Source: Candidatus Cloacimonadota bacterium (lineage in GTDB: Bacteria > Cloacimonadota > Cloacimonadia > JGIOTU-2). From it: a DNA stretch of 64,000 nt. The position numbers were made by a program, and so were the translations under genes. The stretch's first letter is position 1. Each line of letters opens with the position of its first letter. The notes beneath the pieces were generated by a model. That model was not told the origin of the DNA. It ran no database searches and worked only from the letters and a program-made list of their open reading frames with translations. This document shows positions 22,682 to 54,814 of this stretch, piece after piece. The stretch spans positions 256,001-320,000 of the forward strand of contig JBNGBT010000002.1 in assembly GCA_049903315.1 (NCBI GenBank), given 5' to 3'.

Positions 22682-23668
22682 ATGATTAAAAAATATGTGC
22701 CACTCCTTTTACTAACCGTCTTACTGTTAGTCAGTTGTGCCGATTTTCTCGAGCCAATAATCAATTATGGGGAGCTTGTGATCGAAGCAATTATTCCTAC
22801 GATCGGCTTTGCAAGAGATGTGTTTGTTTCTGAAGAATATATATGTATTGCTGAGGATCAAGCTGGTTTTTCTATTTATGATAAAACAAATGATTCGCTG
22901 TTAATCCAGTATTATGGCACTATTGAAAATGCTCGACTTATTCAAACAGTTGAAGCGATAAAACAGGTTTTTGTTTATGACCAATATGGAAGTCCGGCTG
23001 CGATCATGGTATATGACATTGCCGATCCTTCAAATCCGGTGGAAATGCCACCTATTACCGGGCAGACAAGTGATATCGAAGCACTGAAATGTGAGTTGAA
23101 ATCTGGCAATAGTGTCGATGTTTTATGGACTCACGCCAATAGTTATCAATATGGCAATTATAACAATATCTGGCTTGGATCCTATGCATATAACTTTCCT
23201 AATGCAGTAGGGGGATTTGATATTGTAGATACTCTGCTTTTTGTCACAGGCGAGCAAAGAGGGTTATATATCACAAATCGAAATGACGGAAATATCATCA
23301 GTACAGTGAATACTCCGGGCACTGCAATAGATGTCAAAGTGTATGAAAATTTCGCATATGTTGCAGATAAAGAGTATGGATTCTCGGTAATTGATATTTC
23401 AGATATTACACAACCCGAGTTGGTTTACACTCGTGACACATCAGGACACGCACAGAGAATCGATGTTGAAGGGGATTATCTTGTCGTTGCATCCGGTGGA
23501 GGGGGAGTGTACTTATTTGATATTTCAGACCGTGCTCATCCTGAGTTTGCCGATCGTTGGGATGATTCGGATATTGGTTACACGTATGATGTGGATATGG
23601 ATAATGGGGAAGTTTTTGTTGCAACCCGCGAGGGTGTGTATCGTATGATAATAATTAATGATAAATAA
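22682..23668 (+). CDS. Lipoprotein with LVIVD-type beta-propeller repeats
   Basis: Lipobox LLVSC; repeats AYVADKEYGFSVIDISD, LVVASGGGGVYLFDISD. Confidence 0.8.
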   Translation: MIKKYVPLLLLTVLLLVSCADFLEPIINYGELVIEAIIPTIGFARDVFVSEEYICIAEDQAGFSIYDKTNDSLLIQYYGTIENARLIQTVEAIKQVFVYDQYGSPAAIMVYDIADPSNPVEMPPITGQTSDIEALKCELKSGNSVDVLWTHANSYQYGNYNNIWLGSYAYNFPNAVGGFDIVDTLLFVTGEQRGLYITNRNDGNIISTVNTPGTAIDVKVYENFAYVADKEYGFSVIDISDITQPELVYTRDTSGHAQRIDVEGDYLVVASGGGGVYLFDISDRAHPEFADRWDDSDIGYTYDVDMDNGEVFVATREGVYRMIIINDK

Positions 23669-51186: not shown

Positions 51187-51392
51187 GAGAAAATTTATGA
51201 ACAGGATACTTTTAATAAGTGTGATAGTATCATTAGTAATAATCATAGGCGCAATTATAGGTTTTTTCCTCAACAGAAAAACAGATTTAGGGATAAAATA
51301 GCCTATAATCAGCTGTATCTAAGAAAATCGTTATTTTTCTTGACAAGCCCCTTAGTAAAAATATCAAGTATTCAAAACATGCTGGAGGCAGT

Positions 51393-53399
51393 ATGAAAAA
51401 GCTATTTATTATTTTTGTAATTTTATCATTTTTTATTACTATACCACTTTGTGCCCAATCAATAATCTGGCAAGAAAATTTTAATACAAATCCCGGCACC
51501 TGGGCACTAGATTCAAACTGGAGTATTCAAAGTGGTGCATTAATGTTATCCTGGTCGCCCACAGTCGCTCCCTATGATCTTAGTGCGACATCACCATTCA
51601 TCAATTTACCGTTAAATGTAGGGGATCTGACTGTTTCTCAGTTTATTGACGAGTTTTCGACAAATACAGGAGAAGTAACAAACATTGAACTGATTCATCC
51701 TGGAGGAACAACTGTTCTATGGAGTTTCGATTTGGTTGGTACTAATTGGGGTTATTCTGGTGGTAAAGATATAAGCTTCTCTTTATTCCCATATGCAGGA
51801 CAGCAAGTTCAAATTAGATTTAGAAGTTACGGAGGAAGTACCTATAATTTCAATTATTGGTACATTTATAATGTTGCCATTAATGCATCTCTCGATCATG
51901 ACCTTGCAGCAACAAACATTTCCGGCAATAACATTCTTAATATCGGGCAGCAGGGATTATGGAATGTGACAGTCAAAAACACCGGGCTTAATACTGAGTC
52001 TAATTATGAAGTAAATCTCATGCGAGAACCGGGCATCGTGCTGGGTTCTACTTTTGCAACTACTCCTCTCGCTCCTGATCAACAAACCATCTATCAGTTC
52101 AACTGGACTCCGGATATAAGTGAAGTGGTCAATCTTTACGGGCAGGTTATTCTACCTGGTGATGAGTTCTTGGATAATAATACGACAAATCCATTTTTGG
52201 TTAATATTTATCCTGATGACCCGATTAATGTGCTTGTCTGGGATAATGATAATGCTTCGGATATTGATGGAATAGGTACACAGGTTTTTCTTGAAGAAGC
52301 TCTCACTGCAAATAATGTAACTTATGATACATACACATACCTGCCGGCAAATCTCACACCATATGATGCCATATTTGTTGCTCTTGGCATCTACTGCGTT
52401 GGCTGAGGCACTACACCTCCAGGCTCCGTCGGAGCCTCTGATCAAACGACTTTAATGAACTATCTTTATGGTGGACATCCAATTTATATTGAAGGTTCAG
52501 ATCTGGGATATTCTCACCAGGGAACAGCTTTCCTCGCAAGTCTCGGATGCAGTTTCTTGTCAAATGATACACAAAATATTGGTACTATGACAGGAGTATC
52601 AGGTACTGTTGGAGAAGATTTTGTTTTTCCTTTCACTGCCAATACCGATGCAAATTACTCAGTAGATGAGATAGGCGGAATATTCAGCAGAAGTGTTGCA
52701 TTCAGATCCGATAACAACTATTCCCGTACAGTTGCGTATGCAGGAGCGAATTATAGCACCATTGCATCAACACCGATACTCGGCGGATTAGAAAATACTG
52801 ATACAAACTCAAAAGCTGATTTGGTTGCAACATATCTCGGATACATGCTTAAAATAAATGGTGTATTTCGCGGTATTGTTACAGATAATAATACAGGCGA
52901 TCCTGTTCAAAATGCCACAGTGAATGTAGGTACGTTTAGTGGTGTGACAAATTCATATGGACTTTGTGCGATAGAAGTTCCCCCCGGTTCATATGGTATA
53001 AGCTGCTCACATCCGAATTATGCAACTTTCGTGTATCCATCAGAAATTATAATAGATTATAATGACACATACTGGATGGATATCTCTCTTACTCCAAGTG
53101 TTTCAATTGATGATTTTGAGCAACAGGACGGCATCACGCGCATCTTTCCAAATCCCTTTACCATTCAAACCGCTATTAAATACTATATGAAATCTTCAGG
53201 AAATGTAGATATCAGTGTATTTAATATTAAGGGACAAAAGGTGTGTACTTTAGTTGATGAATACAAACAATCCGGCTATCATGATAATACATTTAACAAT
53301 TCATCTGAATATACTGCGGGACTTTCTTCTGGTATCTATTTCATGAAGTTGGAAACAGAGCAAGTCACTCAAATTGAAAAATTCATAATTCTTGAGTAG
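51393..53399 (+). CDS. Candidate secreted selenoprotein, 668 aa (CxxU, Sec at TGA 52404-52406): signal, beta-sandwich, CARDB-like, alpha/beta domain, carboxypeptidase-regulatory-like domain, T9SS-like CTD
   Basis: The two listed ORFs are in the same frame; the linker GTTPPGSVGASDQTTL is open; the signal is only in the first part and the CTD only in the second; SECIS-like hairpin follows the TGA. Confidence 0.75.
52421..52437 (+). promoter_or_regulatory. Putative bacterial SECIS hairpin
   Basis: Perfect 7-bp stem AGGCTCC/GGAGCCT with GTC loop; 14 nt separate the TGA from the stem and 21 nt from the G-first loop. Confidence 0.65.
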
Positions 53400-53414
53400 A
53401 ATAATTTATAACAG

Positions 53415-53449
53415 AAAAAGCCAGTTCAGTATGTGAGCTGGCTTTTTTT
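53415..53449. terminator. Bidirectional intrinsic terminator
   Basis: AAAAAGCCAGTTCA-GTATG-TGAGCTGGCTTTTTTT between the convergent CDS and tRNA. Confidence 0.8.
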
Positions 53450-53460
53450 GTAATAAAAAA

Positions 53461-53535
53461 TGGTAGCCCCAAGGGGAATCGAACCCCTGTTACCGGAATG
53501 AGAATCCGGCGTCCTTACCCCTAGACGATGGGGCC
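53461..53535 (-). tRNA. tRNA-Glu (anticodon CTC)
   Basis: Reverse complement folds as a cloverleaf: acceptor GGCCCCA/TGGGGCT, anticodon arm CCGGA-TTCTCAT-TCCGG, T arm AGGGG-TTCGATT-CCCCT, encoded CCA. Confidence 0.95.
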
Positions 53536-53724: not shown

Positions 53725-53839
53725 AAATTAAATCCAATTCTGCATTGATCATGATGGAAAAAATTATTAATTGACAAAATTTACCATTAAAATTGGGAAA
53801 ATATTAAGAATTAGTTCATTAGAAATATTAGGAGCTGTT

Positions 53840-54814
53840 ATGAATTATGAAATAATTCAAAAATTAAGATATAAGTTACAGAAAAGAGTAAGAAGGTTGA
53901 ATTCAATTGAAGTGCCGCAATTGTATCATTCTTATTTAAAACAATTTTGGGTATTTTTACATGAATCACCGATTTTTTCCGGAATATTGGATGATTTATC
54001 AAAAAGAATTCCTGAAGCAGAAAAATTAGCAAATGATATAGTATTGAAAAAAGAAACAATTTCATTCAATATTGAATTAGAATTGGTTGCAACTTGTTAC
54101 TATGTGATTGACATATGTGTTAAATCTAAATCTAATGACATAGAGATGAAAATTGGATTTATATATAAAAAAGCAGGTCCATTTGCTAAAAACCTTGAAT
54201 TTTTTCATCACTATTTTGTGGAAACCCTATATGATTATATTGATGAGAATTTAGATGATCAGAAATTGCTTTTAGCATTATTACGAAGATATAAACAAAG
54301 ATGCGAATGGTTTAGAAGAGATTCCTTACTCAAAATGTACAATGAAAATACTCAGATTGGTGAAAAATCCTTAGCAATGGATTTATATGAATATTTATTT
54401 GATCAAGGGATTGAATTTTCCATTGAACCTTCATCAGCTTCTGGCAAGCCAGATTTGATTGCTGCACAGAATACGGATGATCCATTAATTGCAGATGCAA
54501 AAATCTTTGATCCTCAAAAGAGTAAAAATATAGCATATATTACAAAAGGTTTTAATCAGATTTACCAATATACTATGGATTACAATGAACCATTTGGATA
54601 TCTTGTAATTTTCAAGATTTGTGAAGAGGATCTCAAGTTGGATTTTAAAGAAAAAGAACGAGCAATACCTTTTGTTATTTATAATAATAAGACAATATTC
54701 TTCATCGTAATTGATATTTGTAAATATGAGAAAAGTGCTTCACAAAGAGGTAAATTAAAAGTATGTGATCTAAGGGAGGATGAATTAATTAAAATTATTA
54801 AAACCAAAGAATAA
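53840..54814 (+). CDS. Hypothetical protein with C-terminal PD-(D/E)XK-like nuclease motif
   Basis: ATG 53840 after AGGAG; GKPDL..IADAK and QIYQY (QxxxY); visibly more AT-rich than neighbouring housekeeping genes. Confidence 0.6.
   Translation: MNYEIIQKLRYKLQKRVRRLNSIEVPQLYHSYLKQFWVFLHESPIFSGILDDLSKRIPEAEKLANDIVLKKETISFNIELELVATCYYVIDICVKSKSNDIEMKIGFIYKKAGPFAKNLEFFHHYFVETLYDYIDENLDDQKLLLALLRRYKQRCEWFRRDSLLKMYNENTQIGEKSLAMDLYEYLFDQGIEFSIEPSSASGKPDLIAAQNTDDPLIADAKIFDPQKSKNIAYITKGFNQIYQYTMDYNEPFGYLVIFKICEEDLKLDFKEKERAIPFVIYNNKTIFFIVIDICKYEKSASQRGKLKVCDLREDELIKIIKTKE

Follow-up and report, generated by a model that had tools for sequence, protein, structure and literature searches.

A predicted selenoprotein gene read through an in-frame TGA

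The DNA analysed here, referred to below as the window, is a stretch of 64,000 nucleotides from a Candidatus Cloacimonadota genome (positions 256001-320000 of contig C22 in genome G000, which is 96% complete), and this work concerns a locus within it where two open reading frames (ORFs), 51393-52406 and 52455-53399, lie in the same reading frame on either side of a TGA codon. When this TGA is translated as selenocysteine (Sec, U), the locus encodes 668 amino acids without a stop, with the codon in the context YDAIFVALGIY-C-V-G-U-GTTPPG, that is, in a Cys335-Val-Gly-Sec338 (CxxU) motif (Table 1). A GGAGG sequence at 51384-51388 precedes the first ATG, no GGAGG-like site lies ahead of 52455, where the second ORF begins, and the gene ends with TAG followed by a hairpin of -26.3 kcal/mol. 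This hairpin (53411-53451) was absent from the output of a terminator scan, and a promoter scan returned 13 sites against 9.7 expected, none of which was assigned. The original prediction, made from the sequence alone, had joined the two ORFs into one exported selenoprotein and had described the second half as carrying a C-terminal sorting domain (CTD) without an evident ribosome-binding site; both points hold, the CTD being recognised by two profiles above cut-off.

Table 1. Features of the Sec338 gene, in window coordinates.
Feature	Position	Strand	Basis
Ribosome-binding site GGAGG	51384..51388	+	Read from sequence
Predicted single gene, 668-aa exported selenoprotein, UGA = Sec338	51393..53399	+	Read-through translation, paralogue, orthologues, family TGA/Cys column
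Signal peptide, aa 1-21	51393..51455	+	By eye; homologue N-termini alike
N-terminal beta-rich domain, aa 22-166, probably MAM/cleaved-adhesin-like (weak)	51456..51890	+	MAM PF00629 match in member P0025
CARDB Ig-like domain, aa 170-265	51900..52187	+	PF07705
Sec domain (aa 277-488) with class I glutamine-amidotransferase-like fold, elbow Cys missing	52221..52856	+	AlphaFold pLDDT 95.6; 2gk3 Z 17.3
Cys335 (TGC), opening residue of CxxU	52395..52397	+	Cys in 79/79 TGA-bearing domains
In-frame TGA, selenocysteine 338	52404..52406	+	Read-through, paralogue, family comparison, independent assemblies
Bacterial SECIS hairpin: 7-bp stem, loop GUC at 52428-52430, 21 nt past UGA	52421..52437	+	Folding, covariation, published rules
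Glu367 of the YIEG strand ahead of the elbow	52491..52493	+	E in 88/88 family rows and 10/10 non-CxxU rows
Carboxypeptidase-regulatory-like beta-sandwich, aa 493-567	52869..53093	+	PF13620
T9SS type A C-terminal sorting domain, aa 584-668	53142..53396	+	TIGR04183, PF18962
Strong hairpin with A/T-rich base, probable intrinsic terminator	53411..53451	+	-26.3 kcal/mol, 0/200 shuffles

From sequence comparison we consider it very probable (about 0.97) that 51393-53399 is one gene and not the two short genes into which gene callers split it. The opposing view, that these are two separate genes or the product of a nonsense mutation or sequencing error, can point to the two halves standing as separate records in public protein collections. 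Against it, the TGA occupies one column in 79 distinct domains with identities down to ~27%, Cys counterparts occur as full-length proteins, the TGA of a paralogue is in register, and in the structural model the break at UGA 338 is inside one confidently folded domain. As to an assembly error, the whole stretch is identical in the contigs (not raw reads) of all 4 public runs compared, from four studies, the source of this DNA possibly being among them. The TGA is also kept in 5/5 orthologues (67-94% identity), and we regard the two-gene or error explanation as very improbable. Since TGA closes 246 of the 1331 long open frames of the genome, it is an ordinary stop there, which implies site-specific recoding and rules out a genome-wide code reading TGA as Trp or Gly.

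The SECIS hairpin and the selenocysteine machinery

Bacterial selenocysteine insertion sequence (SECIS) elements are described, in the Fig. 2 legend of PMC13188914, as having a loop of 3-9 nt with G in the first two places, a stem of 4-16 bp, a distance of 16-37 nt from the UGA and a minimum free energy (MFE) of at most -7.5 kcal/mol. The hairpin that the original prediction had noticed 3' of the TGA lies within all four limits and covaries across the family. Its energy is -11.3 kcal/mol, which was matched by 3/200 shuffles of a 30-nt piece and 9/200 of a 47-nt piece. Across 73 distinct TGA contexts a stem of at least 5 bp was found in 62 and GU at the loop columns in 70, and the mean MFE was -7.95 versus -4.43 for synonymous-codon shuffles; 72 of the 73 lay under their own shuffled mean, 27 of them with p<=0.05, and a downstream control window gave -3.47 versus -3.01 for its shuffles. 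Covariation of the named stem scored 0.454 versus 0.215 (0/500 shuffles), with slid partners reaching at most 0.207, a score that related sequences may inflate. The residues encoded by the stem change along with the pairing (S..A, V..T, I..NS, E-P..S). Rfam gave no match to 52421-52437.

The genome encodes the machinery that such a gene needs, and all four genes that the original prediction named (selA, selB, selC and selD) are present. The tRNA-Sec gene (selC) lies at C22:50023 and is followed by selA and selB (profile scores of 550 and 319 bits), and selD is present twice, once in fusion with a cysteine desulfurase and once as a gene with its own TGA and a hairpin similar in size and position to that of the Sec338 gene. 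At the phylum level, selA was found in 93/201 genomes and in 58 of the 62 with a TGA copy of the family; in one family of 88 genomes neither the CxxU domain nor selA was found. The cysteine desulfurase-SelD fusion (746 aa), which could channel selenium from Sec to selenophosphate, is followed by a short CxxU paralogue and then rimP (G000:C22:65216-68793), an order that recurs in related genomes.

A family with TGA or Cys at one column

The paralogue directly after the fusion (C22:67756-68793; 345 aa, 32% identical) consists of a signal peptide, the domain and a CTD, and reads C-F-G-TGA-G in register with Cys335-Val-Gly-Sec338. The domain was found in 71 of 201 Cloacimonadota genomes, with close copies in 68 (about a third), and also in Bacteroidales. 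Our family sample comprised 90 loci from genome matches plus 6 earlier loci, some weak matches being left out, and yielded 95 distinct Cloacimonadota domains, in which the Sec column is occupied, as the original prediction expected of true homologues, by TGA (79) or by Cys encoded as TGC (9); the other 7 lack the motif (6 distant relatives and 1 fragment). Every TGA homologue that we read runs on in frame into the remainder of the domain. The partner Cys at position -3 is found in 79/79 TGA domains and 8/9 Cys domains, a pairing that fits a resolving Cys. A search with a DNA pattern added 82 metagenome stretches holding 77 distinct TGA domains; as the pattern itself contains TGA, this set is biased by design and cannot count towards a Sec-versus-Cys frequency. 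The domain profile gave no match in metagenome loci L151, L155 and L174.

Protein collections hold the TGA copies as fragments: in the protein library, halves end at C-V-G or begin at T-P-P-G, and none of 39 homologues of the Bacteroidales-type N-terminal half exceeds 359 aa. WOR-3 records contain C-terminal halves. Homologue searches by word index, a method insensitive here, gave no match to the domain, so that a full-length Sec-bearing public record may still exist. Members range from ~340 to ~1000 aa, and complete ones have a signal-like N-terminus and a CTD-like end. The smallest (338-350 aa) are made up of signal peptide, domain and CTD, which marks the domain as the working unit; together with the natural Cys versions, this 340-aa minimal form makes the function directly testable.

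In a FastTree tree of 194 rows, with non-Sec library rows limited to 30, the CxxU/C group forms one clade (162 rows, support 0.955). Cys copies appear at several places within it, suggesting Sec-to-Cys reversions. One clade of 39 rows (support 1.0), whose assignment to Bacteroidales comes from the labels of one neighbour gene and one homologue, is nested among Cloacimonadota rows, which may reflect a transfer of the CxxU gene. On one Bacteroidales-type contig (L124), 2 tandem CxxU genes lie directly ahead of selC-selA; tandem copies also occur in L028/L064, L061 and L041.

Several observations weigh against reading this family as selenoproteins with a dedicated SECIS element. No selA match was found in 4 of the 62 TGA-bearing genomes, which are drafts 83-98% complete. 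The motif is lost in some members, reading R-x-x-C in one L041 paralogue and being absent from P0025, and Trp stands at the Sec column in P0005 and P0038, protein records in which the codon is not visible. RNAalifold found no consensus structure across the family, in which two stem registers occur, and the hairpin of the paralogue is no better than its shuffles (z -0.49). Moreover, 5/5 Cys-coding copies keep the hairpin, which consequently does not separate Sec from Cys genes; it is possible that in these copies it is the relic of a recent Sec-to-Cys change, a fossil SECIS. Cys-coding copies with a SECIS-like hairpin (L023, L030 and L039-L044) come from six genomes, all of which still have selA, and 3 of the six keep TGA in a third exported family ([C/U]-E-Y-G-U) described below.

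The Sec domain adopts a glutamine-amidotransferase-like fold

No profile matched residues 277-488, and none from Pfam matched residues 22-166 of the Sec338 protein itself, for which a single-sequence model (aa 22-276) was unusable, with a predicted local distance difference test (pLDDT) score of 44.7. An AlphaFold model of residues 277-488 built from 108 sequences reached a pLDDT of 95.6. Its best structural match was 2gk3 (Z 17.3, root-mean-square deviation 2.9, 187 aligned residues), followed by 3rht and 5xb7 (both Z 16.8), and both structure searches, Foldseek included, returned the class I glutamine amidotransferase (GATase)-like fold with non-catalytic members ranked top. The model thus identifies the alpha/beta domain, in which the original prediction had seen no evident thioredoxin features, as a non-catalytic class I GATase-like domain; the 50 rows listed by the fold search contained no thioredoxin-like structure, an absence that is insufficient by itself to exclude such a fold.

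The nucleophile elbow of glutamine amidotransferases reads GxCxG. In the Sec338 family the elbow Cys is not present, domain positions 92-94 reading G-[A/V/S]-[D/N] on an elbow strand YIEG-[SAV]-D, a register set from secondary structure and not from residue-level superposition, and the family consensus holds no conserved His-x-Glu. CxxU sits in the loop that follows strand 3, as a short insertion missing from the widespread non-Sec relatives. The conserved residues (WDNDN after strand 1, C335/U338, E367, D370, D425 and R445) lie partly at strand ends and probably form one face of the domain; the acidic ones (D284, D286, E367, D370 and D425) are largely common to non-Sec relatives. Two further exported CTD proteins of the genome, near G000:C2 7691 (-) and G000:C9 9757 (+), carry a distant GATase-like domain without CxxU.

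Probable export by a type IX secretion route

The C-terminal sorting domain scores 42.8 bits with TIGR04183 (cut-off 23) and 42.6 with PF18962 (cut-off 27), both models pointing to the type IX secretion system (T9SS), and the N-terminus shows by eye a basic-hydrophobic-AxA pattern. Six other CTD proteins in the window (starting at 23658, 29798, 33283, 36280, 38658 and 42993) all have hydrophobic N-termini, again by eye, and CTD-like ends, in agreement with the original prediction that the other CTD proteins bear both signals. SprA, PorU and PorV (translocon, sortase and shuttle) are present in the genome, all above cut-off. GldM, the sole GldKLMN component searched, gave no match, but neither did the control. 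PMC11285876 regards T9SS as possibly present in Cloacimonadota. The Sec338 protein therefore appears likely to reach the cell surface or medium by a T9SS-type route. As the CTD lies after the UGA, only the Sec-containing protein could be exported, and selenium would then gate export.

What the CxxU domain may do

CxxU is a known redox motif of selenoproteins (PMC13188914). Because the Cys partner is invariant and CxxC variants occur, we rank first a role of the CxxU domain as a surface thiol/selenol redox module, to which we give somewhat less than even odds. Independently of this role, SelB bound to the downstream SECIS hairpin very probably delivers Sec-tRNA to UGA 338, yielding a product ordered as signal peptide, beta domain, CARDB, CxxU domain, beta-sandwich and T9SS CTD, and termination at the UGA would leave a fragment without the CTD. 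The signal peptide would take the protein across the inner membrane and the T9SS-type route then to the surface or medium. There, in the redox scheme, Sec338 might attack an oxidant or an oxidised thiol, Cys335 would resolve the adduct to a selenylsulfide, and an exported reductant would regenerate CxxU; a candidate is the genome's own Omp28-like UxxC selenoprotein, which has a thioredoxin-type fold. The cycle may protect the surface enzymes of the anaerobe against oxidation. The GATase-like fold would serve as a scaffold presenting CxxU on the side of the strand ends, which carries the active site in folds of this kind, and the remaining domains, freely varying across the family, could be spacers or adhesins.

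A consideration against the redox role is that the linkage of the family to selC-selA and nifS-selD fits a selenium-handling function equally well, and on account of this linkage we place second, at roughly one chance in four, a role in selenium economy or soft-metal capture. Here the exposed Cys/Sec pair would bind, at the surface, Hg/Cu/As or, in a selenotrisulfide-type adduct, selenide or selenite, and so feed the Sec pathway or serve detoxification. In the Bacteroidales-type clade, selC and/or selA lies downstream on the same strand in 22 of the 34 loci with at least 400 nt of downstream DNA (43 examined), the short paralogue comes after the cysteine desulfurase-SelD fusion, selD is found in 7/168 family loci, and genes for ZupT, ArsG-like and SaoE-like proteins adjoin single loci. 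The five conserved acidic residues could form a metal site, and several predicted selenoproteins are tied to metal handling in PMC13188914. Using Sec to collect selenium would, however, be circular, a gene that simply moves together with the machinery on which it depends would show the same sel linkage, the acidic residues recur for the most part in non-Sec relatives, and most family loci, the window included, have no selenium or metal neighbour.

The original prediction had speculated that the protein activates neighbouring secreted cysteine proteases, and a dedicated reductant or activator of gingipain-like proteases (peptidase family C25) does find weak support: the window holds 3 C25 genes and the genome at least 9 C25-like matches, 13 Sec-type loci, most of them from a W-T-P-P-[DE]-P subclade, have a C25 gene next to the family gene, and among non-Sec relatives the domain occurs in fusions with C25, M14, S8 and C1 peptidases. 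A C25 match was, however, seen in only 15/168 loci, mostly of one subclade (a lower bound, with flanks of 1.5-5 kb), and genes of the Sec machinery adjoin the family gene more often. Between the Sec338 gene and the proteases of the window lie a two-component system and a probable operon boundary, and the fused relatives, which lack CxxU, also go with metallo- and serine proteases that need no thiol reduction. C25 was not seen in orthologue loci L004-L008, whose flanks end before the corresponding position. We find this activator role unlikely, and slightly more so the use of Sec as catalytic nucleophile of a GATase-scaffold hydrolase or transferase, in which it would stand in, from an adjacent loop, for the missing elbow Cys with Glu367 as partner. 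The GATase-like fold, the invariance of Glu367 and the listing of a GATase-type selenoprotein in deep-Sep (PMC12013277) speak for such an enzyme. Yet the best structural matches are non-catalytic (2gk3, GH42 domain B and ThuA-like proteins), His-x-Glu is not conserved, Glu367 is equally invariant in relatives without Cys or Sec, and the strict Cys pairing at -3 points to redox cycling.

Relation to known protein families

Non-catalytic class I GATase-like domains of the same fold include STM3548 (2gk3), 3rht, domain B of glycoside hydrolase family 42 (GH42; 5xb7 and 4oif) and ThuA-like proteins (4jqs and 1t0b); they are 9-15% identical to the Sec domain, and the Sec family differs from them by its CxxU loop insertion and export signal. 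A PDB sequence search with the domain gave no match (best E 0.048). The direct homologue is an accessory domain (VCLGIYSxNHVL type, ~27-32% identical, sharing YxEG and DxL) of surface proteases in the Fibrobacterota-Chlorobiota-Bacteroidota (FCB) group, found fused to the four peptidase families named above; it lacks the C-x-x-U-G-x-T-P insertion, and the CxxU/C group forms its own clade apart from it.

The only listed selenoprotein with a GATase-type fold is, in the accessible parts of PMC13188914 (Table 1) and PMC12013277, the CTP-synthase-C-terminal-related (PyrG-related) family NF004836. Its motif is GxUxG, compared with C-x-x-U-G-x-T-P-P in the Sec338 family, of which 0/108 members match it at E<=0.1; unlike NF004836, the Sec338 family places its Sec one strand ahead of the YIEG-[SAV]-D elbow. 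The Omp28-related family NF045500 ('hypothetical protein GOS_C', UxxC) has a distant member in the genome that is likewise equipped with a signal peptide, a single Sec and a CTD of the T9SS type, which gives a precedent for exported selenoproteins; its UxxC, however, lies near the N-terminus of the Omp28-like domain, and 0/108 Sec338 family members match the model. The same Cys-x-x-Sec order is found in SelW-like PF10262, GrdA, AhpD/CMD-like proteins, UshA-like family 2 (NF049981) and the FCYXU TonB receptor (NF049945), whose Pfam and NCBIfam models have no match in the 108 members at E<=0.1.

More generally, at this threshold the domain of these members is covered by no family of Pfam or NCBIfam (June 2026) beyond weak hints of ThuA (3/108) and GLMA_2nd (2/108), and none of the Atlas look-alikes of a natural Cys homologue carries a name. 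Table 1 of PMC13188914, a 2026 review listing 119 families, those of Haft and Tolstoy 2025 included, has nothing like the Sec338 family in its accessible form, and no description was found in the accessible text of PMC12013277, bioRxiv 10.1101/2022.07.06.499078 and PMC8542988, or among the matches listed in full-text literature searches on selenoproteins in Cloacimonadota, Bacteroidales, T9SS and GATase. In line with the original prediction, which had not recognised a described family, this is a selenoprotein family missing from the catalogues checked, which exclude BSepDB entries and the candidates of Deng et al. 2026. The structural context is likewise new for Sec, in that a CxxU of redox type has been inserted into a loop of a GATase-like domain without catalytic function. 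The family further indicates an investment of selenium in exported proteins by anaerobes, a subject unmentioned in the accessible text of the 2026 review, where 'secret' and 'signal peptide' occur 0 times.

Other exported selenoprotein candidates in the genome

The Omp28-like protein (725 aa; G000:C22:43322-45499, equivalent to L182:6323-8500, +; TGA at C22:43424) has a signal peptide, a single Sec in T-S-T-S-U-G-Y-C (UxxC) and a CTD, matches NF045500 weakly (82 bits, cut-off 200) and is encoded 4.5 kb ahead of selC-selA-selB. The Omp28-like domain, which we take to be thioredoxin-type, was matched with TGA or Cys in 84/201 genomes. Its Sec/Cys state agrees with that of the CxxU family in 53 of the 55 genomes with both (47 U/U and 6 Cys/no-TGA, the other 2 being U/no-TGA); set against the significance of this agreement, the 6 Cys/no-TGA genomes belong to two families only, so the co-variation amounts to about two events.

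A third exported candidate (715 aa; G000:C69:9698-11845, equivalent to L184:699-2846, +; TGA at C69:10379) begins with a signal peptide, followed by a beta-rich domain whose last residues are C-E-Y-G-U and then by a choice-of-anchor Q piece and a CTD. It was matched in 47/201 genomes, most with one TGA, and has a SECIS-like hairpin; among the copies fetched, 3 read U-E-[YF]-x-U (two Sec) and one C-E-Y-G-C. No NCBIfam selenoprotein model matched it, and it is apparently a separate uncatalogued family.

We tentatively propose, as a doubtful but attractive extension, that FCB anaerobes export a T9SS surface selenoproteome (CxxU GATase-like, Omp28-like UxxC and [C/U]-E-Y-G-U) acting as an extracellular selenium redox relay, in which the CxxU gene would have moved with selC-selA from Cloacimonadota into Bacteroidales and may be a main reason there for keeping Sec decoding.

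Surroundings of the Sec338 gene in the window

The six exported CTD proteins of the window lie between 23658 and 46676 and comprise three C25 gingipain-like proteins, two M14 carboxypeptidases and one without assignment. Downstream of the Sec338 gene, a tRNA-Glu(CTC) gene (53461-53535, -) is found here and in 5/5 orthologue loci, and beyond it lies a 347-aa ORF (53771-54814, +) with no Pfam match. After the CTD cluster and just upstream of the Sec338 gene are genes for a histidine kinase with a PAS domain and for a sigma-54 response regulator, and a sigma-54 regulator match recurs in several family loci.

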